Source: Escherichia phage vB_EcoM_NBG1
Sequence record: MH243438.1
DNA length: 64,000 bases
Direction: 5' to 3' (one strand)
Made by a program: the position numbers and the translations under genes. The notes beneath the pieces are model-generated. The model was not told where the DNA came from. It saw only the letters and a list, made by a program, of their open reading frames with translations, and made no database searches. Of the stretch, positions 13,121 through 41,473 are shown piece by piece (the stretch's first letter is position 1; every line of letters begins with the position of its first letter).

Positions 13121-14934
13121 TGGTGTTTAACCCTATGCATGATTTCTTTATTTTTACCGAGATTAAATCCGCGTTCGTTCGGATTTCCCAAATAGCCGCA
13201 TGTTCTTCTTATTGTGTTCATCTTTTTAGGATCAGTTTCTCCACAGATAGAACAAACAAATCCGTTTTCAGTAGGAGTCATTTCATGAGTACTTCCGCAT
13301 GTAAAACATTTATCTACTGGCATATTAACACCAAAATAATCTAAATGTTGTGCAGCATAATCCCACACGGCCTCAAGACCTTTTAAGTTATTTTTCATAT
13401 CAGGAAGTTCAACATAAGAAATGTGACCACCTGTCGCAATGAAATGATATGGCGCTTCACGAGAAATCTTTTCAAACGGAGTAATATTTTCTTCTACTGA
13501 AACGTGGAAACTGTTAGTGTACCAGCCTTTATCGGTAACATATTTTACACTTCCATATTTTTCTGTATCAAGTTTACAGAAGCGGTAACAAAGGTTTTCA
13601 GCAGGAGTCGAATATAAACTAAAAGCAAATCCAGTTCTTTCAGTCCATTGCTTAAGATGAGCATTCATTTTAGTTAAAATTTCTTGTCCAATATCACGAC
13701 CAACAAGAATATTCAATTCGTGAATACCAATGTATCCTAAAGACACTGAACTTCTACCGTTTTTAAATAACTCAATTATGTCGTCATCAGGTTTAAGACG
13801 AACCCCGAATGCACCTTCTTGGTAAAGAATAGGAGCAACAGTCGCTTTAACTCCTTTTAAGGAACTAATTCTACACATCAAAGCTTCAAAACACAGGTCC
13901 ATTCGTTCGTTAAATAGCTCAACAAATTTCTGTTCATTGAACTGTGTTCCAATATAAGAATCTAACGCAATACGAGGAAGATTCAGTGTTACAACACCAA
14001 GATTATTACGTCCATCAAGAATTTCATTACCAGTCGAATCTTTCCATACGCTCAAGAAACTACGGCAACCCATCGGAGAAACAGGAACTGAAGAACCGGT
14101 AATAGCTTTATTATTCTTAACCGAAATAATGTCAGGATACATTCTTTTGCTTGCACATTCTAACGCAAGTTGTTTAATATCATAGTTTGGATCATCTTTA
14201 TAAAGATTAACACCTTCTTCAACAAACATAACAAGCTTAGGGAAAATAGGAGTTATCCCATCACGACCAAGACCTTTAATACGATTTTTCAGAATTGCTT
14301 TCTGAATCATTCGTTCAGTCCAGTCAGTTCCCGTACCAAATGTAATTGTTACAAAAGGCGTTTGCCCGTTTGAACTAAAAAGAGTATTTACTTCATATTC
14401 ATAAGCTTGGAATGCATCGTATACATCTTTTTCTGTTTTAGATTGAGCATAATTCAACGCATCAGCGATTTGCCATTTTTCTGCATCCTCAATATGTTTT
14501 GCATAGGTGCGTTTAACATAAGGAGAAAGTACTTTATCTACATTAGCAAAAGTCGTTCCGCCGTATTGATGGGAAGCAACTTGTGCAGTAATTTGTGCCA
14601 TAACTGCAGTAGCAACACCAATCGATTTAGGCGTTTCAATTTGAGCATTGCCTAATTTAAATCCGTTCTCAAGCATCCCCTTTAAATCGACTAAACAGCA
14701 ATTAGTAAATGGAAGAGCAGGGGAATAATCAATATCGTGGAAATGGATAATTCCGCTTTCGTGTGCTTTCATAATAAAAGACGGGACCATATTTTTGGCA
14801 ATGTGTTTAGACACAATACCAGCCATAAGGTCCCGTTGAGTTGGAAAAACACGAGAATCTTTATTAGCATTCTCGTTTAAAAGGTCTTTATTAGTTTTAT
14901 GAATCAGTCCTTCAATTTCTTTTTCAATTTTCAT
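13117..14934 (-). CDS. nrdD: Anaerobic ribonucleoside-triphosphate reductase NrdD
   Basis: 605 aa, C-terminal glycyl-radical motif RTCGYLG and Zn-ribbon cysteines; uninterrupted. Confidence 0.95.
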   Translation of the reverse strand: MKIEKEIEGLIHKTNKDLLNENANKDSRVFPTQRDLMAGIVSKHIAKNMVPSFIMKAHESGIIHFHDIDYSPALPFTNCCLVDLKGMLENGFKLGNAQIETPKSIGVATAVMAQITAQVASHQYGGTTFANVDKVLSPYVKRTYAKHIEDAEKWQIADALNYAQSKTEKDVYDAFQAYEYEVNTLFSSNGQTPFVTITFGTGTDWTERMIQKAILKNRIKGLGRDGITPIFPKLVMFVEEGVNLYKDDPNYDIKQLALECASKRMYPDIISVKNNKAITGSSVPVSPMGCRSFLSVWKDSTGNEILDGRNNLGVVTLNLPRIALDSYIGTQFNEQKFVELFNERMDLCFEALMCRISSLKGVKATVAPILYQEGAFGVRLKPDDDIIELFKNGRSSVSLGYIGIHELNILVGRDIGQEILTKMNAHLKQWTERTGFAFSLYSTPAENLCYRFCKLDTEKYGSVKYVTDKGWYTNSFHVSVEENITPFEKISREAPYHFIATGGHISYVELPDMKNNLKGLEAVWDYAAQHLDYFGVNMPVDKCFTCGSTHEMTPTENGFVCSICGETDPKKMNTIRRTCGYLGNPNERGFNLGKNKEIMHRVKHQ

Positions 14935-15404
14935 TTTAAACTCTTTCTAAGCTGCTTTTTGAATGAAGCTATTAATTGTGTTTTAGTATCAGATTCATTA
15001 TATTCAAATCCTCTTTGAAGCATCTCAGCCATCATTTCCTCTTTACCTAGTCTTGAGAACTCTTTAGTTTTGTCTGGAACAAAATTAGGATGGATATTAT
15101 TATCAGAATAATCTTGTTTCAAATAAGCAAGAAGAGCTTCAAGCCATTTGAGGTAGTCGACATCACGACCTTTAAGACCAGAACGGTTGAACTTATGCTT
15201 CATTTGGCCTTCTGCTGCGTTGCACAGATTACAGAGTAACCCACGAACTCTACCTGCTTTTGGCCCGTTTAATTCGTGGTCGTGGTCAAGATGGTTACCT
15301 TGAACATCAGGGTCTAATTCACGGTGGCAAATAGGACACTTACCGTTCTGTGCATCATAAAATTTTTGTTTTTCTTCTTTGTATAATTTGCCAGATAATA
15401 ACAT
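14931..15404 (-). CDS. 49: Endonuclease VII (Holliday junction resolvase) gp49
   Basis: MLLSGKLYKEEKQKFYDAQNGKCPICHRELD... 157 aa, close match to T4 endo VII. Confidence 0.9.
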   Translation of the reverse strand: MLLSGKLYKEEKQKFYDAQNGKCPICHRELDPDVQGNHLDHDHELNGPKAGRVRGLLCNLCNAAEGQMKHKFNRSGLKGRDVDYLKWLEALLAYLKQDYSDNNIHPNFVPDKTKEFSRLGKEEMMAEMLQRGFEYNESDTKTQLIASFKKQLRKSLK

Positions 15405-15442: not shown

Positions 15443-15622
15443 TTAATAAATGTTATAAAAGTCACGATGGAAACGTTTGTATTGACGAATCATTCTTTTA
15501 GTAGGACGTGTTACCGAAATGATTGAAGTCCTCATGTTCGGATTGTTTGGAGCACCAATTATAACAAATTTCCAAGATTTTTGGCCGTTTGTTCTTTCGC
15601 CAAAAAATAATGCAGTTTTCAT
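15443..15622 (-). CDS. small basic protein, paralog A (59 aa)
   Basis: Hand-translated MKTALFFGERTNGQKSWKFVIIGAPNNPNMRTSIISVTRPTKRMIRQYKRFHRDFYNIY; paralog of 16047-16244. Confidence 0.45.
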   Translation of the reverse strand: MKTALFFGERTNGQKSWKFVIIGAPNNPNMRTSIISVTRPTKRMIRQYKRFHRDFYNIY

Positions 15623-16046: not shown

Positions 16047-16244
16047 TCAATATTCTCTATAAAAGTTACGATGAGAACGTTTAGCTTTGCGAAGCTGACG
16101 TTTAGTAGGACGAACTGTAAATGGTTGTCCAGAGAAAAAATTAGGATCGGTTTTAATAAGCAAATACCAATCATGTTTGCCATTTTTTAATAAACGGTAC
16201 AATAATTTAACTTGCATAATAATCTCTTCCCATTTCCATATCAA
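16047..16244 (-). CDS. small basic protein, paralog B
   Basis: ...NGKHDWYLLIKTDPNFFSGQPFTVRPTKRQLRKAKRSHRNFYREY shares NG-K-W...VxRPTKR...HRxFY with paralog A. Confidence 0.45.
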   Translation of the reverse strand: MIWKWEEIIMQVKLLYRLLKNGKHDWYLLIKTDPNFFSGQPFTVRPTKRQLRKAKRSHRNFYREY

Positions 16245-16345: not shown

Positions 16346-16702
16346 TTAACCGCGGAGCTTATTGAGCTCTTCATAATCAATCCAGGATTCTAACCCAGAT
16401 GGCAGGTCACATTCGATGTTCCACAGAAGCTCTTCAATGGCTTGTAGACGATTGAGTTCTTCAACGGTAATAGTAACCATTGGTTCAACCGGTTTTGCCT
16501 TTTTAACCATCATGTCATTCATCAGGACGTACAAGTCGTCACGAACAACGGTATCATTCCAACCCCATGATTTGGCTGCATACGCTAATGATGATGGGAG
16601 CACATTTAAAACTTCAATAATAGATGGAGATTCAGGACCAAGCTCAGATACACAAACTTCGTATACATCTTGGAAATCTTTAAGATTTAATGAATATGTC
16701 AT
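16346..16702 (-). CDS. hypothetical protein
   Basis: 118-aa acidic ORF; start codon inside 22-bp repeat. Confidence 0.5.
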   Translation of the reverse strand: MTYSLNLKDFQDVYEVCVSELGPESPSIIEVLNVLPSSLAYAAKSWGWNDTVVRDDLYVLMNDMMVKKAKPVEPMVTITVEELNRLQAIEELLWNIECDLPSGLESWIDYEELNKLRG

Positions 16703-16721
16703 TTAAAATATTCTCGCAGTT
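16700..16721 (-). repeat. 22-bp direct repeat, copy 1 (catttaaaatattctcgcagtt)
   Basis: Identical to 17015-17036; here intergenic between stop of 16721-17017 and start of 16346-16702. Confidence 0.7.
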
Positions 16722-17017
16722 TATTGTTCTACACATGCACAGGAAACTTCGAAATCAGGACCGTCGTACTTCCAGTGATATTCACCAACAGGAATCCAGT
16801 CACCATGCTCGTTTTCTTCATAGTCCTCAGGCTCAAGGCCAACGAATCGCCATTGGACACCGATGATTCTATTACCCATCATTACTCGAAATTCGCCCCA
16901 TGGATTATCAATAGCATACTGAATATCGTTCTTAGCACGAGAGCACATTTCTTGATATAACAAAGTTTCTAATTCGTCCTGGTCATAAGGGCCTGGGAAA
17001 GTTAAATCGATATTCAT
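16721..17017 (-). CDS. hypothetical protein (candidate inserted gene)
   Basis: 98-aa acidic ORF flanked by the 22-bp direct repeats. Confidence 0.5.
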   Translation of the reverse strand: MNIDLTFPGPYDQDELETLLYQEMCSRAKNDIQYAIDNPWGEFRVMMGNRIIGVQWRFVGLEPEDYEENEHGDWIPVGEYHWKYDGPDFEVSCACVEQ

Positions 17018-17277
17018 TTAAAATATTCTCGCAGTTGGTCAAATCCACCAATGTGACTTCCGTCAGGAGCAAACACTTGAGGCATCGTCAATCCAACATG
17101 TGTTTCACGTCCAAGCTTAGCCAGAAGCTCAGCAATTTTCTCATCGTCGAACACACCTTTTTCTGGCATAACATTAATGAATTCGAATGGTTGTTTCTTA
17201 ACAGTCAGCAATCGTTTCGCATTATCACAATAAATGCATTTATGAATAGTAGAGTCATACCCGTACACTTTAAACAT
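17014..17277 (-). CDS. nrdC: Thioredoxin/glutaredoxin NrdC
   Basis: MFKVYGYDSTIHKCIYCDNAKRLLTVKKQPFEFINVMPEKGVFDDEKIAELL... near-identical to T4 NrdC; start at internal Met. Confidence 0.85.
   Translation of the reverse strand: MFKVYGYDSTIHKCIYCDNAKRLLTVKKQPFEFINVMPEKGVFDDEKIAELLAKLGRETHVGLTMPQVFAPDGSHIGGFDQLREYFK
17015..17036 (-). repeat. 22-bp direct repeat, copy 2
   Basis: Identical 22-mer; here it encodes the nrdC C-terminus (LREYFK-stop) and overlaps the next start codon. Confidence 0.7.
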
Positions 17278-17683
17278 TATTTTTCCTTTCATCAATTAAA
17301 TATGCAATGCCAAATACAATACATGTAATAAAACCTGTGATACAGATAGAAACCAACAACACTGTACCAAAGAACCAAATCAAGTTATCTTTAGTAGTTT
17401 GTTTGATATCCATCTCACGAATTTCTATAGCTATCGTATCACCTTTATTCAGAAGCGTATAAAACGATGGCGATACACGTCTGTCAAAAACTCGTCCTTG
17501 CTCATCTTTATAGACTGCAATAAATTCTAATTTAGAATATTTTCCTGTAGATTGACCTGAGATTAGCTCTACTACCTCCACAGGAATTACTTTAGTTTCC
17601 ATGTAAGTATTCTGGCTGTTCCAAATGAATGGAATAATAGCAAAAACTAAAGCTGCGATAAAACAACGAAAGCTATATCTCAT
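17270..17683 (-). CDS. membrane protein
   Basis: 137 aa with N- and C-terminal hydrophobic helices. Confidence 0.5.
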   Translation of the reverse strand: MRYSFRCFIAALVFAIIPFIWNSQNTYMETKVIPVEVVELISGQSTGKYSKLEFIAVYKDEQGRVFDRRVSPSFYTLLNKGDTIAIEIREMDIKQTTKDNLIWFFGTVLLVSICITGFITCIVFGIAYLIDERKNNV

Positions 17684-17988
17684 TATAATGTTCTCTCAAA
17701 TTTGTGGAAGCATTTACGGCATTTCAATTTCAAGTTATCACTGGTCCAGTTAACCAGTTGGACTTGGATAGTTCCACATTCCGGACATGGATGTTTTGCT
17801 GCCGATTTGGCAGCATTTTCACGTCGTTCAACCATTTTCATTATTTCGTTCCATGCTGGAGGAACGAACTCTTCTTCACCATGAATTTTATCTCGCTGAA
17901 CAAATTCAATCTTTGAACTATCATCAATAAACTTAACCAAGTCATGATTAGTGCTCATATCAATATCCTCTAAAAGACGTAGTTTCAT
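17683..17988 (-). CDS. zinc-ribbon protein
   Basis: CPECG...CRKC cysteine pairs; start may be MSTNHD at 17958. Confidence 0.5.
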   Translation of the reverse strand: MKLRLLEDIDMSTNHDLVKFIDDSSKIEFVQRDKIHGEEEFVPPAWNEIMKMVERRENAAKSAAKHPCPECGTIQVQLVNWTSDNLKLKCRKCFHKFERTL

Positions 17989-18938
17989 TATAAAACCTCA
18001 ATGGCATTTCGTAAACCATCCGCTTTCGCATTCAGAGCTTTTAACGATTTAGTTTGTTCTTTAATCTGAGCTTCGACTTCTTTCAGACGAGATTTGAGAT
18101 ATTCACGTTCTTCGGCCATAATATCTACCTTTTCTGCTTTAGGTTCTTTAATAGGCTTAGGCTTATACGTATTAGGGTTCTTCAACTTAATTTGAATGCG
18201 AGAACTGAATAACATCGAACCGTTATCTTCGGTTTCATCATGCATTTCTACCACGTCCATGATTCTTAACATCATGCGAAGTTTATAAGACAGCGAACGA
18301 ACGGTTTTATTGTGCTTCTTAATTTCTTCAGCTTTCATGGTGCCGAGATTACGTGAGTAATAATAAGGAACCTGAATATCAATTGATAATGATGCAGTAC
18401 CATTACCGGTTGGTTTGAACACTGCAGTAACCCAATCTTTAGCATGAACTGTATTTGTACGATCATCGCCGCCTGTGAATAATTTACGAGAATGTTTAAA
18501 AAGCATATTCACTTGGTTATTGAATTCACAAGCAAATTTATCAGCAAATTTAGTTTCAGGAATGGTAGATAACCAATCAGCCAAATGAGTCTTTTTAACA
18601 TCATTAACAATAGTGAATTCAACCAAATCGGTTTTAGATGTCACAGATTTAATAAAGCTCGGCTTCATAAAGTTTTTAATGTTATCGCGAGCTACAGTAG
18701 AAGATAATAAACGAGAACGTTTGAACCATTGAAGCAGTGTCCCTAATGAATGAGAATATGCATTTTGAGTATCTTTACAGATATGATTTTCTTGGCCTAT
18801 GTATGTACCAAAATCTCGAAGAATACCACTTACTACATCTCGGTGTGGAACATCAAATCCTAGTGCACCAGAAGCACGTTGGGCATGAACGTTAGCGATA
18901 AGACCTGCAAAGTATTCAATGTAATGTGAACGTGTCAT
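17988..18938 (-). CDS. hypothetical protein with C-terminal coiled coil (316 aa)
   Basis: ~250-aa globular part then heptad-rich tail EEREYLKSRLKEVEAQIKEQTKSLKALNAKADGLRNAIEVL. Confidence 0.6.
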   Translation of the reverse strand: MTRSHYIEYFAGLIANVHAQRASGALGFDVPHRDVVSGILRDFGTYIGQENHICKDTQNAYSHSLGTLLQWFKRSRLLSSTVARDNIKNFMKPSFIKSVTSKTDLVEFTIVNDVKKTHLADWLSTIPETKFADKFACEFNNQVNMLFKHSRKLFTGGDDRTNTVHAKDWVTAVFKPTGNGTASLSIDIQVPYYYSRNLGTMKAEEIKKHNKTVRSLSYKLRMMLRIMDVVEMHDETEDNGSMLFSSRIQIKLKNPNTYKPKPIKEPKAEKVDIMAEEREYLKSRLKEVEAQIKEQTKSLKALNAKADGLRNAIEVL

Positions 18939-18966
18939 AATATTTTCCTCTCGTTAAGATAAATTC

Positions 18967-18996
18967 ATTATACTCCAACCATCCTTGGTTGTAAAC
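18967..18996 (-). promoter_or_regulatory. Early promoter with spacer hairpin
   Basis: Minus strand GTTTAC -35, 18-nt spacer containing CAACCA-AGGA-TGGTTG hairpin, TATAAT -10. Confidence 0.5.
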
Positions 18997-19000
18997 TATT

Positions 19001-19960
19001 TTATGATTTTAATGCATTCATTGCGTTAAAAAGTTTAGAATACTGCAACTGGAGATTCGTTACAACACTTTGAGCATCACGAAGCTTAGCTTGTGCTTTG
19101 TCAAGTTCAACAGACAGTTGGTCCATAGTGGCCTTGATTTGATTGTAATGGTAATCTTCGGCCGGAAGAAGGTCATTAGAAACATTTAGTTTTACTGCAG
19201 ACAGTTTGCACACATTTGGCAAACCTTTAAACATTGATTTAGCCGAAGTAGAATAAGCACTTAGGACTTCGGCTTGTTCAATTGGGGTCCCAGTAAGCGA
19301 TGCTTCAAACAATGCATTTTCCTTTTTAAGATTTTGATAGTATTCAGAGTCTTTGTGCCACCATGGCGCAGGAACCTTTTTACCAATAGATACACGAGCC
19401 TGGATAGCGATATTGCCCTTATTCTTGATAGGGTCGATAATATTAAGCTCACGAGAATAAATTGCTTTAATCTGGTGAATATTATCACCTAAAACTTCCA
19501 ACGCTTGGTGGAATACACGAGCAACGTTATCATTCTTAGGTTTATACGTGAGAGTGAACTCGTTCTCACTGATAACCATGATTTCCAACTTATCGTAAGT
19601 ATATTTCAAATGTTTCATGTTAATTGCTTGAGGACGAATACGAGAAGCAATGGCCATCAGATTGTTAAGGTTATTCCGGAACTGCTTAGCGAAATATTGT
19701 CCTTCACCGCCAATACAAAAATTACGAAGTTTCTGTTTGGCCAATAAACGGCTGAACTCGCCATTTTTAATGAACTCTTTAACGGGTGTGTTAGTAACGC
19801 ATTCAAATTGAGTAAACTTACGAGAATTAATCCCATAATACGAACAGATTTCCTCAATCTCTTCAGGAGTCTTTACAGGCATACGGATAGGATTAGGTCC
19901 TGGAGTATATGCGTTCGAGGTAAATTCTTTGATAAGTTCTCTACGTGTAATAAAAGCCAT
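19001..19960 (-). CDS. hypothetical protein with C-terminal coiled coil (319 aa)
   Basis: Same architecture as neighbours. Confidence 0.6.
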   Translation of the reverse strand: MAFITRRELIKEFTSNAYTPGPNPIRMPVKTPEEIEEICSYYGINSRKFTQFECVTNTPVKEFIKNGEFSRLLAKQKLRNFCIGGEGQYFAKQFRNNLNNLMAIASRIRPQAINMKHLKYTYDKLEIMVISENEFTLTYKPKNDNVARVFHQALEVLGDNIHQIKAIYSRELNIIDPIKNKGNIAIQARVSIGKKVPAPWWHKDSEYYQNLKKENALFEASLTGTPIEQAEVLSAYSTSAKSMFKGLPNVCKLSAVKLNVSNDLLPAEDYHYNQIKATMDQLSVELDKAQAKLRDAQSVVTNLQLQYSKLFNAMNALKS

Positions 19961-19986
19961 TTTATATTCCTCATGTTGAAAAATTT

Positions 19987-20016
19987 ATTATACTCCAACC
20001 ATCCTTGGTTGTACAT
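19987..20016 (-). promoter_or_regulatory. Early promoter with spacer hairpin (copy of 18967-18996 core)
   Basis: 24 bp identical to 18968-18993 (ttatactccaaccatccttggttgta); -35 variant ATGTAC. Confidence 0.45.
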
Positions 20017-21011
20017 CATTCCTTAAGAAGTTTTACTACTTGAATAAGATTAGCTCGTTCTGTTTTATTTTTACCATTTAAGCCTGCTAATCGTGAGATT
20101 TCATCGTCAGTCTGTTGAATAGTTACATTAAGTTCGTTAATCAAAGCTTCAAAGTATTTGATTTGCTCAGCATGTTTTGATTCAAATTTCTGAACAGGAA
20201 TAACGTCTTGGTTCAGTTCATCAATAAGGTCTTTAAGAGCATCTTCTTGGTTGATATCATATTCAACTTCTTTTATTTCTTCAACGAGCTCGTCTTTATA
20301 TCTAACGTCTTTTAGTCCTGGTGCTGGTCCTGAAATCTCTTCTTTAAGAGTACAAACATATCCAATACGGTATCCAATGCCGTCTCGCTTGATATCAACT
20401 TCGTCGATAAATCCACAATGTTTAAGCCCGGAGCCGATTATGTCAAAATATCCTTGACGTCGTCCTTCAAACGTTACACGAACTACTAAGACAGTTTTAC
20501 CTGCAACCTTTTGAAGCTCACATTTATAAAAGTCAGTTGAACCTGAATAACGTGGATTAGTTTTAAAGTTCATCTGACGATCTAGGCCCATTTGTAAGCG
20601 TGCTGTTACGGCCATAAAACGTGTTTGGTTCTCGTTAAGATGAGCAACAATCCATTTCAAAGGCATTTTACACTGTTCACGGCCGAACAAATCAGTACGT
20701 CCTAAATTACGCAGGATATTGTTAGAGTTAATCATCGACAGAACGTTAAGTTTATTCAGCGCGCTGAAGATTCCATCGGCCATTGATTTTCCGTAACCTT
20801 TACACGCTTTAATAAGTGCTCGCGGTAGATTAGTATAGATTTCAGACGGCATATGAAAATCAAATTTACTAACCAGTAATTGATGAACTTGGATAGCAAT
20901 TTGTTCATAATTAAGTGCTCTGCGATCATTATGGTCTTTAAACCACACTTTAATCTGTGAAGCACATAAACCGTTAATTTCATGTTTTACCGCATCAGAT
21001 GTAATGCTCAT
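20016..21011 (-). CDS. hypothetical protein with C-terminal coiled coil (331 aa)
   Basis: Globular N-terminal part plus acidic coiled-coil tail. Confidence 0.6.
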   Translation of the reverse strand: MSITSDAVKHEINGLCASQIKVWFKDHNDRRALNYEQIAIQVHQLLVSKFDFHMPSEIYTNLPRALIKACKGYGKSMADGIFSALNKLNVLSMINSNNILRNLGRTDLFGREQCKMPLKWIVAHLNENQTRFMAVTARLQMGLDRQMNFKTNPRYSGSTDFYKCELQKVAGKTVLVVRVTFEGRRQGYFDIIGSGLKHCGFIDEVDIKRDGIGYRIGYVCTLKEEISGPAPGLKDVRYKDELVEEIKEVEYDINQEDALKDLIDELNQDVIPVQKFESKHAEQIKYFEALINELNVTIQQTDDEISRLAGLNGKNKTERANLIQVVKLLKE

Positions 21012-21073
21012 AACTATTTCCTCAGATTGAATTGGAACTCAAAACCATTATAACCCGTCCTTGGGTAAAGCGT

Positions 21074-21601
21074 TTATGCGTGAACCGTCTTTAAACGTTC
21101 TTCAAATTTCCGAAGAGTACTAATACGTTCTGCTTTCTGTTTTGTATAGTTTGCAATACGTTCTGAAGTGAGAGCGTATCGTTCGTTTACTGTTTCTTTC
21201 ATGAAGTCAGGGATTTCACGAGAAGCTTTAATTTCATCAAACTTATCGAGTACTGCCTGGTCTTCAGCAATTAAATTTTCGTACATCTCGATATCTTTCT
21301 TGATGAAGTCGATATCTTCCTGGGTTACTTTGGATAAACGAGATGCTTTATCCTTTTTGTACTGCTCGTTAGTTTCACGAGACCAGAATAATGTACGTTT
21401 TTTGTTAGTGTTTTTGTAGACTTCCACAATTCCAACTGAATCGATGATAACAATCCAATTCCAGCGAGATTTGAAAATCTGACCTCCGTCCACGGTAATC
21501 TCGTTACCATAAGCAATGTCATTAAAGAACTTACTTTGTGCTTCAGATTTAAATTTACCGTCGTTATAATTTACCAGGTTGAAAATATCTTTAGCGTTCA
21601 T
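21074..21601 (-). CDS. hypothetical protein
   Basis: 175 aa; GGAGG Shine-Dalgarno. Confidence 0.55.
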   Translation of the reverse strand: MNAKDIFNLVNYNDGKFKSEAQSKFFNDIAYGNEITVDGGQIFKSRWNWIVIIDSVGIVEVYKNTNKKRTLFWSRETNEQYKKDKASRLSKVTQEDIDFIKKDIEMYENLIAEDQAVLDKFDEIKASREIPDFMKETVNERYALTSERIANYTKQKAERISTLRKFEERLKTVHA

Positions 21602-21628
21602 GTTTTACCTCCAGTAGTTGATAGGTCT

Positions 21629-21657
21629 ATAATAACATAACCATAGACCTTGTAAAC
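21629..21657 (-). promoter_or_regulatory. Early promoter with palindrome GGTCTAT...ATAGACC
   Basis: Minus strand GTTTAC, 17-nt spacer, TATTAT. Confidence 0.5.
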
Positions 21658-21659
21658 AA

Positions 21660-21947
21660 CTAAAAGAAACTTTTTTCGGTATTTTTTCCACTGAACCAAA
21701 CAGACTTCGGGATTTTTTGTAATTTTTCAGATTTAAGTTTCTCTTCCTGTTCTTTCTTATATACACCCTTGTCGTACTGGAGCATCTCTATGGCATTCTT
21801 TTGCAAACGATCTAAGGTAATTAAGGCTTTAGTTTTTCCTTTCAAGGAAGAGTCCTGGCGAACCTCCTCACTATATTGCATCGTAGAACTAACCATACGA
21901 TGAGCATACAGTTCGACTGCGGCTTTAATTTTTTGCATAAAATCCAT
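21660..21947 (-). CDS. hypothetical protein
   Basis: 95-aa ORF. Confidence 0.5.
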   Translation of the reverse strand: MDFMQKIKAAVELYAHRMVSSTMQYSEEVRQDSSLKGKTKALITLDRLQKNAIEMLQYDKGVYKKEQEEKLKSEKLQKIPKSVWFSGKNTEKSFF

Positions 21948-22084: not shown

Positions 22085-23086
22085 TTATTTCAGTAAAGTT
22101 ACTTCAGAGATTTCCTCCCAACCATCTTTATCAGTTGAAATAAAATCTGCTACATAAAGAGCGGTACGTAATGATACATTGCGAAGACGAGATACATTAG
22201 CCTTCATCCAGGACAATGCTTTGTACGTTTCTGCATCCGTCAGGCCACGTTTCTGCATCATGTCAGTAGATAATATTACATCTTCAACTCGAACCATAAT
22301 CTCTTCATTAGAGTGTACTCCAAGGTCGAGATACACTGAACGAGATACTAAAGCTTGAAGGTGTGGAGCAAGTTTCGAACCCCGTTCTAACTCTTTATCG
22401 ATATCAACGTTTGTAATGAAAACGATAGTACCTTCAAACTCAAATTCTTTATCAATACCCTTATCCTCGAGATAAGATGACGCAGTGCTCCAACAAACTT
22501 TGCGTTTATCGCCTGTATCTAATGCTGCTTTAAGAAGGTTCAAGATGTCCATATCTGAGAATACGTCAACGTCGTCGATTAAGAGAACGCTGTCTGCATC
22601 ACGGTTGAGCCAAAGTTGTTCGTAAAGGCCAATACCAGAGATTTTACCATTAATGCTTTTGTATTTGATGAAACCATTACCATTAGCATTATTAAGTGCT
22701 TTATCCAGAGAGTACGTCTTACCAATACCGGCTGCACCTGAAATAATGAGTGAACGAATTTTGCCATCGATAATGCCATTCGTCATCATGTTCATTACTT
22801 TAAAGCGTTTGTTGATACGAGTTTTCATATCTTCAGCGCTTTCAATAACTGCAACTGGTGACGTCTCAACTCCTTCCATTACGATGTCTGATTTGAAGAC
22901 CCATACTCCACGTTCAGAACCATCAATCATAACGAAAATTTTACCATCACCTAAGTGGGAACATTCAGGATTAAGCTTTGCCGGGAACCATGTCTTTGTG
23001 GCGACATAAGAACCAGAGATTTCGTTATTACGATAGATACCTTTTTTGATTTGAACGTTGAACATTTTATTCTCCAATTTACTCAT
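22085..23086 (-). CDS. P-loop NTPase (AAA-like) of unknown function
   Basis: Walker A GAAGIGKT, Walker B VLLIDDVD, sensor-like FITN; ~110-aa N-terminal extra domain. Confidence 0.6.
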   Translation of the reverse strand: MSKLENKMFNVQIKKGIYRNNEISGSYVATKTWFPAKLNPECSHLGDGKIFVMIDGSERGVWVFKSDIVMEGVETSPVAVIESAEDMKTRINKRFKVMNMMTNGIIDGKIRSLIISGAAGIGKTYSLDKALNNANGNGFIKYKSINGKISGIGLYEQLWLNRDADSVLLIDDVDVFSDMDILNLLKAALDTGDKRKVCWSTASSYLEDKGIDKEFEFEGTIVFITNVDIDKELERGSKLAPHLQALVSRSVYLDLGVHSNEEIMVRVEDVILSTDMMQKRGLTDAETYKALSWMKANVSRLRNVSLRTALYVADFISTDKDGWEEISEVTLLK

Positions 23087-23184
23087 TTCGTTTCGATAGG
23101 TCTATAATAACATATCCTAAAAGCATGTACACTACTTTTTTAAAAATATTTTAACCCCCTAAAGGGACCCGAAGGTCCTCGCAT

Positions 23185-23482: not shown

Positions 23483-24472
23483 TTATTTATAGTAAGAATT
23501 ATGATTTTCGAGATAGACTTGCTCAAGGAAATCATCCCAGAAACTCATATCTACTTTTTGTTGCATACCGTTCTTAGCGGCTTGTTCTGATGCTTGTTCT
23601 ACCTGGTCAACAATGACTTCCAGGAATTCTTGTACAGTTTTAAACGTATGTTTACCAAGCTTAACATCGAGAATAAATGGAGCATCCTGAAGTGGGTAAA
23701 CCAAGTCACCGGTTTTGTAAATTTCCAATAATTGAAGTCCACCACGACATGCATGACTCAATGCTTTCCAGTCAATACCTTCGTTAGCTTCTGCCTTACG
23801 AGCACGTTCACCATAGTTCTCTTCCAGTTTAACCAGGATGGCATTGAACTCTTTATTGGTTAACGTATCTTGGAATTTACGGTCTAACAGATTATAGAAT
23901 GTTTGCTTACCTGTTTTCTCGTTTTCGGTTTCAATCCACGAAGCAAATTCACCTACAGGCAGAACATTCTTCATATGTGATAAACGAATTACTGCGCCAT
24001 TATCAAAGTATTGTCCCCATTCATTAGAACGTTTAAGGGCTTGACGAAGAACAGCCAGTCGAGAACCCTTGACACCGTATTTAGAAGCTTGCTTACGGAC
24101 ATACCCCAAATAAGATTTCATGTTAGTGGTATAGAAACGAGACCTGTTATCTTGAATATACTTCCACACGTCAGGCAAATCAGATTTAACCACTAGACTT
24201 GGTGGAGTGTGAAGCATATCTAATGCGACAGTTTCACCATCCGCAGCTAGTTTAAAGAAATATTTGAGACTATACAACTCATGGTCCACGTCGTCTTTTG
24301 TGTTCTTAGAAGATGTGTTATTCGTGTTCTTGCTCATGTGTTCTTTAACGTTACCGGTCAAGATATCACGAGCATGAGGGACATAAATTTCTTTAAAATC
24401 GACGTCAGATTCAGGAGTAGACGTTCCATAAAGGTGGCTACCAAAGTAGCCTTTCATAATTGTTTTCATCAT
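23483..24472 (-). CDS. Nucleotidyltransferase-fold protein (Pol-beta superfamily)
   Basis: N-terminal GSHLYGTSTPESDVDF (GS-x9-SDxD) plus downstream acidic residues; ~250-aa helical C-terminal part. Confidence 0.55.
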   Translation of the reverse strand: MMKTIMKGYFGSHLYGTSTPESDVDFKEIYVPHARDILTGNVKEHMSKNTNNTSSKNTKDDVDHELYSLKYFFKLAADGETVALDMLHTPPSLVVKSDLPDVWKYIQDNRSRFYTTNMKSYLGYVRKQASKYGVKGSRLAVLRQALKRSNEWGQYFDNGAVIRLSHMKNVLPVGEFASWIETENEKTGKQTFYNLLDRKFQDTLTNKEFNAILVKLEENYGERARKAEANEGIDWKALSHACRGGLQLLEIYKTGDLVYPLQDAPFILDVKLGKHTFKTVQEFLEVIVDQVEQASEQAAKNGMQQKVDMSFWDDFLEQVYLENHNSYYK

Positions 24473-25663: not shown

Positions 25664-25827
25664 TTTACCATACTCGTTTCAATAAGATTCACTATGCCGT
25701 TTACCATGTTATAAGTAAACATCGGATAATTGTATTGTACTACAACATAAGAGATAAGCAAAAGTTTCATTTTGTTCTCCGTTCGTTTTGGTAGGACTAC
25801 TATAACATAATCCTACCAAGATGTAAA

Positions 25828-29414: not shown

Positions 29415-29873
29415 CTAGATTTTAATCACTGCTTTAGAAGCTTTTCCTGGTAGTCGTTTACTGTTAATAATAGCCATTCTGCATTGAAGAGTCTTCATTT
29501 TGAATGCCGGATTTTCGCGACAAACTGTAAGTCCTAACCAAAGATTTCCGTCAGTTATTTCTAAACGGCCTGGACGATACTCGACACCTTCGACAAAATC
29601 TTCATCAACATCTGGACGTGCCGGCATTGATAAAAATTCTGCAACTTCTTTAACGTGATTTTTTACTTTATGAAATAATTCAAAAACGTAATTCTCATCT
29701 ATTTCTCTCTGGATGGCACGATCTAAGAGATGTTGAGAATACTTGATATGAAAGCCTGGTAGTCCAAGAGACTTTGCAGCATCTTTTATACCGGCATTTA
29801 TTTTGCGGAACTCCGTTTCAAAGATTCGACGGAGTTTATTACGGCGGATAAAAACTTCCGAATTGATAGTCAT
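29415..29873 (-). CDS. regB: RegB endoribonuclease
   Basis: MTINSEVFIRRNKLRR...LKYSQHLLDRAIQREIDE...RPGRLEITDGNLWLG...QCRMAIINS.RLPGKASKAVIK matches T4 RegB. Confidence 0.85.
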   Translation of the reverse strand: MTINSEVFIRRNKLRRIFETEFRKINAGIKDAAKSLGLPGFHIKYSQHLLDRAIQREIDENYVFELFHKVKNHVKEVAEFLSMPARPDVDEDFVEGVEYRPGRLEITDGNLWLGLTVCRENPAFKMKTLQCRMAIINSKRLPGKASKAVIKI

Positions 29874-29880
29874 TTTGATT

Positions 29881-29930
29881 TCTCCTCTAGTTGACAAGTC
29901 TATAGTAACACAACTAGAGGAGAAGTAAAC
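29881..29930 (-). promoter_or_regulatory. regB early promoter with anti-SD/SD stem
   Basis: Minus strand GTTTAC-TTCTCCTCTAG-TTGTGT-TACTAT-...-CTAGAGGAGA-AATCAAA-ATG; 10-bp perfect inverted repeat. Confidence 0.55.
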
Positions 29931-41405: not shown

Positions 41406-41473
41406 TTTGTTTACTCCTCTGTAGTTGATAAGTCTATAGTATCACCGTCCTTGGTGCTTGTACATCGTTATTT

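Follow-up and report, generated by a model that had tools for sequence, protein, structure and literature searches.

Crossover at a promoter-borne 27-nt repeat and natural presence/absence of an nrdC.5-type gene in the nrdC.3-nrdC.6 early region of Escherichia phage vB_EcoM_NBG1, a probable counter-defence array

In the hyperplastic regions of T4-type phages, non-essential genes are separated by elements called PeSLs (promoter-early stem-loops), each composed of an AT-rich stretch, a sigma-70-like early promoter, a stem-loop, and a Shine-Dalgarno (SD) sequence with ATG (PMC2839356; PMC4122927). Recombination between neighbouring copies deletes or inserts the intervening gene (Arbiol et al. 2010, PMC2839356; Comeau et al. 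2014, PMC4122927), and PeSLs have already been marked at ~47-51 kb of PST/T4, which is the nrdC region (Comeau et al. 2014, PMC4122927). Here we describe three consecutive genes, designated A, B and C, in a stretch of 64,000 nucleotides of Escherichia phage vB_EcoM_NBG1 (MH243438.1; the window, whose coordinates are used throughout unless another locus is named). Judged by sequence and gene order, the locus is the nrdC.3-nrdC.6 part of the T-even hyperplastic early region, between nrdC and nrdC.11, of an RB69-like Mosigvirus. It combines known kinds of system (the T-even hyperplastic region, PeSL-type cassettes and the NrdC.5 counter-defence family) and is not a new kind. The window cassettes share with PeSLs an early promoter, a stem-loop, a position flanking accessory genes, and recombination between copies. 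They differ in the stem, which is G-tract/C-tract in PeSLs, whereas here it is short, contains A/T, encloses an invariant AGGA loop and is not terminator-like.

The closest tested protein is T4 NrdC.5, which, when provided in trans, restores growth of the deletion mutant on cells carrying Dsr1, a sirtuin defence (Srikant, Guegler & Laub 2022, PMC9391042). B resembles it in having the same DUF7235 end to end, the same length class, array position and early-gene context, and the same coiled-coil tail; it differs in having 23% identity in the globular part, and the anti-Dsr1 activity is that of the T4 protein. Other T-even phage genes act on other defences: OLD is inhibited by T6 gp49.2, Septu by T4 nrdC.1 and Druantia III by Bas37_0203. 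T-even anti-defence islands (dmd/tifA/adfA, the internal-protein locus, 49.2/nrdC.1/nrdC.8) are similar to the present locus: in them, non-essential early genes of small to medium size are clustered, each gene acts against a host system of its own, and the gene content varies between close relatives. The members of those islands are mostly unrelated, whereas here at least nrdC.3, nrdC.4 and nrdC.5 are paralogues of one architecture. A possible functional analogue of the NrdC.5 family is DSAD1, the phage inhibitor of DSR2, which blocks a defence-associated sirtuin by direct binding; it acts on a sirtuin system other than Dsr1, and for this conjectural analogy we claim no sequence relationship.

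An earlier reading of the letters alone (the sequence-only reading) had described three tandem open reading frames (ORFs) preceded by copies of a shared promoter/hairpin cassette. The ORFs exist at the coordinates in Table 1, all on the minus strand, and the 26-nt string that had been singled out occurs exactly twice in the 64 kb, at 18968-18993 and 19988-20013, with no copies expected (100 shuffles). Its core had been put at 24 bp; the repeat holds, the core being 26-27 nt. Exact identity extends over 27 nt, within an extended repeat of 43 nt at 88%. Both parts proposed for the cassette, sigma-70-like -10/-35 hexamers and a CAACCA/TGGTTG hairpin, are present, and the perfect inverted repeat sits within the promoter spacer. 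In copy 1 the -10 is followed by the SD sequence GAGAGG and then by the ATG of A. Both copies fit the published PST/T4 PeSL consensus TTTACW-N17-TAYWAT, and on the coding strand the best sigma-70 matches of the region fall exactly into the two intergenic gaps that precede A and B. Promoter-like sites as such are no more numerous in the region than chance would give (23 versus 26 expected), so what speaks for these promoters is where they lie, their strand, how well they match and their agreement with the T4 early-promoter consensus. A and B each have a T4-type sigma-70 early promoter in front of them, and A, nrdC.2 and the next ORF are probably translationally coupled.

The recombination of these cassettes can be seen directly among relatives. 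Many Mosigvirus genomes (RB69/phAPEC2 group, e.g. Bas47 AlbertHofmann) match the region at 97-98.6% nucleotide identity. As a query we used a synthetic B-deleted junction, in which a single cassette connects the 5' part of A with the 3' part of C, and it matched 20 phage genomes end to end (657/657 nt, 97-98.6%). Phage G2469, for example, has the gene order nrdC.2-A-C-nrdC.8, and in its single cassette the left flank is that of copy 2 and the right flank that of copy 1, with the junction inside the identical core. B was found in 132 records, the C-type gene in ~151 and the B-less arrangement in ~20, so that about one-eighth of Mosigviruses lack B; in one species, Mosigvirus mar005p1, genomes with and without B are both found. 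The comparison of this locus across related phages, which the sequence-only reading had proposed as a check, thus gave a positive answer, with some 20 genomes joining A directly to C. We conclude that B has been naturally deleted or inserted through a crossover inside the 27-nt core, and that this hybrid junction is new evidence, in Mosigviruses, for recombination of the PeSL type. The cassette would thereby do two jobs, providing immediate-early transcription of the gene behind the promoter and, as a direct repeat of 27-43 nt, offering phage recombination enough homology to excise or insert the intervening gene.

It might be objected that the two copies are identical through functional constraint on a promoter and an RNA signal, with no part in recombination, and that the three genes form a fixed operon-like block. 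As such constraint would have it, no T-even array spacer departs from the -10 or from the hairpin core CAAGGA(Y)G, and the three-gene arrangement is stable across ~130 genomes. However, equivalent cassettes with the same core use six different stem sequences, so function does not require identity over 27 nt, and the crossover inside the core of the B-less genomes is at odds with a fixed block. We therefore regard this explanation as highly improbable.

Crossover at the cassette is not the only form of exchange in these arrays. Between the Tequatroviruses T4 and Bas37 the body of nrdC.3 has been replaced (47-80% nucleotide identity inside, ~97% in the flanks), with breakpoints just inside the ORF ends and not at the cassette. 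The Bas37 NrdC.3 allele is nearer to the Mosigvirus allele (76% amino acid identity) than to that of T4 (60%), in spite of flanking DNA that is 95-100% identical between T4 and Bas37. Some genomes contain a chimeric nrdC.5/nrdC.3 ORF; in one such ORF, P0033, located on a 167-kb phage contig, residues 146-272 of NrdC.5 are fused to residues ~135-309 of NrdC.3. In locus L010 (14400-15432) nrdC.4 is split into ORFs of 193 and 158 aa; the fusion and the split alike point to decay and deletion in the array.

That each of the three genes stands behind its own cassette copy proved right for A and B and wrong for C, which has only a degenerate relative upstream, with a TTTAC motif only 11 nt upstream and without a correctly spaced -35. 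Given this lack, C is probably transcribed from the nrdC.8 promoter and so probably co-transcribed with nrdC.8. A short hairpin of the form seen upstream of C is also found downstream of nrdC.8 in T4 and in locus L007. The nrdC.8 promoter belongs to a second family of early-promoter cassettes (21618-21661, 23093-23136 and 25788-25815), which lie upstream of nrdC.8, nrdC.10 and another gene and read TTTACA/TGTACA-N16-TATTAT followed by AGACCTATCAAC; the nrdC.8 copy folds as a strong hairpin across the -10 and the SD sequence (-21 kcal/mol, z = -3.4).

The hairpin of the window cassettes consists of a perfect 6-bp stem and the 4-nt AGGA loop (-5.3 kcal/mol). On the coding strand, CAAGGA(T/C)G forms the core in every intergenic spacer of the T-even arrays, immediately ahead of the -10 and 44-52 nt before the start codon. 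The arms on either side are complementary and differ in sequence: ACCC/GGGT, CAACCA/TGGTTG, CATCCA/GGATG, TTATACCA/TGGTATAA, TGCCACA/TGTGGTA and AGCCA/TGGCT. In an alignment of ten elements, 91.7% of cells are paired and compensatory changes occur at three of five pairs. The covariation score was 0.54, compared with 0.11 in shuffles (reached by none of 500), a statistic somewhat inflated by the selection of elements with at least four pairs; shifting the partner by one column makes the score collapse. Stems of 4-8 pairs are found in every intergenic coding-strand copy of the T-even arrays, as opposed to mostly 1-3 pairs for copies inside ORFs (one has four). An early promoter elsewhere in the window (41436-41464, minus strand; TGTACA-N17-TACTAT) also holds a hairpin, CACC-AAGGAC-GGTG, in its spacer, so the element is not limited to the nrdC array.

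A terminator role for the hairpin was set aside as doubtful on sequence grounds: the terminator scan did not flag it, the stem is weak and a U-run is lacking. With the local start site downstream of it, the hairpin is present only in read-through RNA from the preceding gene, and there it could act as an attenuator, a 3' stabiliser or a RegB site. One may go further and suppose that it is chiefly a RegB cleavage site, with an unpaired GGA, a constrained fourth base and often a GGAG on its 3' side, at which early transcripts that read through from one cistron into the next are cut, leaving each gene dependent on its own promoter for expression. In early mRNAs RegB cleaves at GGAG/U in intergenic regions, and it is efficient on a small RNA with an unpaired GGA and a constrained fourth base (PMC3014915). 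The window encodes RegB (29415-29876, minus strand; Pfam REGB_T4, E = 4e-69), and a GGAG stands on the 3' side of the hairpin in the copies of the window, in L007, and in the T4 spacer between nrdC.4 and nrdC.3. Four of the ten elements, however, read GGAC, which is no known RegB motif, and beyond the GGAG, agreement with the strong-site consensus GGAGRAYARAA is limited to four of seven positions. On balance we consider a primary RegB role unlikely; it concerns the hairpin alone and is compatible with the recombining, counter-defence array proposed here. The early promoter of regB itself (29902-29929) contains a 13-nt inverted repeat, one arm in the promoter spacer and the other in the GGAG Shine-Dalgarno region, so that only read-through transcripts could mask that SD sequence.

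The three proteins were assigned to families one by one. A is 57% identical to T4 NrdC.3 over 316 aa and lies upstream of nrdC.2, so that similarity and synteny both place it in the NrdC.3 family; its homologues carry PF26897, and A-type genes occur in 653 phage records as three allele classes. B matches Pfam DUF7235 (PF23882) over profile positions 1-307 (E = 1e-122, 409.7 bits, cut-off 30), and T4 NrdC.5 matches the same profile (5e-126, 420.6 bits); the two proteins are 24% identical over 304 aa, and the relatives of B in its 132 phage records are all at least 80% identical to it. C, which lies downstream of nrdC.8, shares ~33% identity with the Tequatrovirus nrdC.6 over 92-100% of its length (587 records, tblastn) and 38% with T4 NrdC.6 over the N-terminal 127 aa (T4 aa 37-158); its homologues carry PF26899. 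An exhaustive profile search with the C family returned 6 cluster representatives among 1.84 billion proteins. Word-index protein searches with A, B and C returned close relatives only (33, 19 and 4, respectively), and no solved structure was found among the relatives of the three. The label "thioredoxin" given in databases was rejected, as none of the three has a thioredoxin/glutaredoxin Pfam match; the label is a spill-over from the nrdC.x gene names. With regard to nrdC.6, the T4 reference gene is annotated with 275 aa, and the DNA past its stop (9997-10066 of L001, the T4 locus, in the gap between nrdC.6 and nrdC.5) encodes a conserved tail end, SKAKSEREKLIKIVDLLKS. In Bas37 (locus L003) and T4D the protein has 295-296 aa, so the T4 reference copy is truncated or shifted.

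BLASTP detects no similarity among A, B and C (best E = 8), in line with the absence of obvious resemblance noticed at first sight; the unrelatedness that this seemed to imply for A and B did not hold up in profile comparisons. For family alignments and these comparisons we gathered 50 related loci from IMG/VR, located through nrdC.2, which in alignment is a conserved anchor downstream of the array across T4-like phages. With hhalign, the A/NrdC.3 family matches the NrdC.4 family at 98% probability (score 97), NrdC.4 matches the T4-type NrdC.5 at 84% (72% with the last 62 residues removed), and the T4-type NrdC.5 matches the B family at 98% (95% without tails). Among the controls, reversed sequences score at most 21, and NrdC.10, NrdC.11 and a 260-aa family never rise above 10%. 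As the chain A-NrdC.4-T4-type NrdC.5-B is significant at each step, A and B are remote paralogues. That nrdC.3, nrdC.4 and nrdC.5 are remote paralogues, as judged from these profiles, is a new result of the present work. C matches the single 330-390-aa gene found upstream of nrdC.2 in distant T4-like phages at 81-87%, falling to 12-51% without tails. The family has one copy in distant T4-like phages, three in Mosigvirus and four in T4. Two IMG/VR contigs have an ORF of 704 aa (L052, 2146-4260) or 847 aa (L053, 2443-4986) upstream of nrdC.2, in the slot usually taken by the 300-390-aa family gene.

The proposed architecture, a globular region followed by a heptad-rich tail, was confirmed insofar as the tails of A, B and C, as proline-free C-terminal helices, show more heptad periodicity than expected by chance; the score was our own, compared with the 95th percentile of shuffled sequences and used in place of a dedicated coiled-coil program. 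Heptad segments occur only at the C-termini (A 267-316, with a weaker one at 203-231; B 267-319; C 278-309), and C-terminal heptads are also found in T4 NrdC.3, T4 NrdC.5 and every single-copy homologue of the distant phages. Of two control proteins, NrdC.10 has none and NrdC.11 one marginal segment (274-301, 0.84 versus a threshold of 0.83). Structure prediction for the B and C families with AlphaFold2, another check suggested beforehand, was of partial use: the confidence was low (pLDDT 43 and 48) owing to shallow alignments, and the order of secondary structure could be used. In B, a single long helix at 266-318 is the best-scored part of a poor model, and C has predicted helices at 256-330. 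Both models give the same order of N-terminal helices, a beta-alpha-beta sheet region, a disordered linker and C-terminal helices. Searched with Foldseek against BFVD, the poor C model returned mainly 300-380-aa proteins of other T4-like phages, which is suggestive only, and the poor B model returned nothing informative beyond RB69 NrdC.5. Identity to the T4-group counterparts is higher in the tails than in the bodies (for B 44% versus 23%, for C 60% versus 31%). Each family member would combine a fast-diverging globular part with a better-conserved C-terminal coiled coil, presumably for oligomerisation. Overall identity to T4 is 57%, 24% and ~33% for A, B and C, as against 77-83% for the flanking genes.

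This divergence, far above that of the neighbouring genes, speaks against a different view, in which A, B and C would be ORFans without common descent, each having acquired a C-terminal coiled coil by convergence, and would serve a general early function such as host takeover or nucleotide/redox metabolism instead of counter-defence. Such a view would account for the lack of direct similarity among the three, for the weak link of C to the others and for the many database records that label them thioredoxin. Also against it, none of them has a thioredoxin or any enzymatic Pfam domain, the transitive matches between A and B are significant and well above the controls, the genes are dispensable in the laboratory, and one family member has a demonstrated anti-Dsr1 phenotype. 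We consider convergence of this kind quite improbable.

Instead, A, B and C most likely neutralise host immune proteins, as their divergence, their presence/absence polymorphism and their counter-defence setting suggest. Transposon maps show T4 nrdC.3-.8 and Bas37_0198-0203 to be non-essential. Bas37_0203 is a 528-nt gene in the nrdC.8 position and, by coordinates and sequence, an nrdC.8 orthologue; by analogy, the nrdC.8 orthologue of the window is probably an anti-defence gene too. Each of the three proteins might bind a host immune protein directly, with specificity residing in the variable globular domain. The original idea, that a diversified array of cassettes holds interchangeable modules for host interaction or anti-defence, is thus supported by the polymorphism, the divergence, the dispensable counterparts and the function of the NrdC.5 family.

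Several points weigh against this interpretation. The counter-defence role of these three Mosigvirus proteins is one that we infer, and with 23-24% identity between B and the tested T4 NrdC.5 the target of B may differ or be absent. The low-confidence models leave a common fold unproven. Direct hhalign comparisons among the A, B and C families are not significant (scores 19-29), and the globular part of C is linked to the others weakly, mainly via the tail, so that homology is not established there. On the side of the cassette, the stem-loop lies inside the -35/-10 spacer, whereas published PeSL stem-loops lie upstream of the promoter; the stems are weak (-3.7 to -7.4 kcal/mol) and lack a U-run; and the selection behind the covariation statistic counts here as well. 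Loss and gain of B cannot be told apart. Taking these points into account, we assign a probability of roughly 78% to the interpretation as a whole, that is, an nrdC.3-.6 block with PeSL-type cassettes, paralogy of A and B, and counter-defence as the putative function of the encoded proteins.

A bolder version can be formulated, in which NrdC.3, NrdC.4, NrdC.5 and perhaps NrdC.6 are one fast-evolving family of coiled-coil-tailed immune antagonists that arose from a single ancestor beside nrdC.2, the paralogues and alleles being tuned to different defences. The promoter-embedded AGGA-loop hairpin would in that case be under selection, for recombination or for RegB/RNA processing, and the genes would be plug-and-play units. 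We offer this tentatively, as a conjecture with the odds clearly against it.

In the interpretation that we prefer, the locus is a clean natural case, in T-even phages, of a 27-nt promoter repeat serving as the crossover for gain or loss of a whole self-expressed gene, and it links this kind of crossover with a gene family of which one member has been proven to act in counter-defence. The three Mosigvirus genes, together with T4 nrdC.3, nrdC.4 and nrdC.6, are candidates for anti-defence screens, and nature already provides the experiment for finding the target of B, in the form of B-plus and B-minus isolates of one species. The AGGA-loop hairpin with its covarying stem, a small regulatory element open to testing, is left unexplained by the existing descriptions of T4 early promoters.

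Table 1. Coordinates of the array genes, the cassettes and the neighbouring genes in the window
Feature	Position	Strand	Description
Gene A	17988-18938	minus	316 aa; nrdC.3 Mosigvirus allele; stop overlaps nrdC.2 start
Gene B	19001-19960	minus	319 aa; nrdC.5 type, DUF7235; present or absent across Mosigviruses
Gene C	20016-21011	minus	331 aa; nrdC.6 Mosigvirus counterpart
Cassette copy 1, upstream of A	18958-19000	minus	promoter TTTACA-N17-TATAAT, 18995-18967, 11/12 to consensus
Copy 1, -35	18990-18995		TTTACA
Copy 1, hairpin	18976-18991		CAACCA-AGGA-TGGTTG
Copy 1, -10	18967-18972		TATAAT
Cassette copy 2, upstream of B	19978-20020	minus	promoter TGTACA-N17-TATAAT, 20015-19987
Copy 2, -35	20010-20015		TGTACA
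Copy 2, hairpin	19996-20011		same as in copy 1
Copy 2, -10	19987-19992		TATAAT
Degenerate cassette relative, upstream of C	21047-21066	minus	ACCC-AAGGAC-GGGT, 21053-21066, directly followed by TATAAT, 21047-21052
nrdC.8 early promoter	21629-21656	minus	TTTACA-N16-TATTAT; second cassette family
Endonuclease VII	14931-15404		90% identity to T4 counterpart
NrdC	17014-17295		92% identity to T4 counterpart
nrdC.2 orthologue	17683-17988	minus	zinc-ribbon protein; 50% identity to T4 NrdC.2
nrdC.8 orthologue	21074-21601	minus	175 aa; 83% identity to T4 NrdC.8
nrdC.10	22085-23086		78% identity to T4 counterpart
nrdC.11	23483-24472		78% identity to T4 counterpart

Around the array, the genes in Table 1 are accompanied by several others. 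An nrdC.7-like gene is placed differently than in T4, an nrdC.7-like membrane ORF (17270-17683, minus strand) lying between nrdC and nrdC.2. No homologue of nrdC.1, the Septu inhibitor in T4, was seen among the window proteins in a comparison with T4 genes. The position of 49.2, the OLD inhibitor in T4, is taken by an unrelated 118-aa ORF without a Pfam match (16346-16702, minus strand), and an exact 23-nt direct repeat (16699-16721 and 17014-17036) lies at the start regions of this ORF and of the adjacent 49.3-like ORF. The pin gene is flanked by two small paralogous ORFs (15443-15622 and 16047-16244, minus strand) of 59 and 65 aa with 36% identity, and the pair also shares a 55-nt DNA repeat at 76%.

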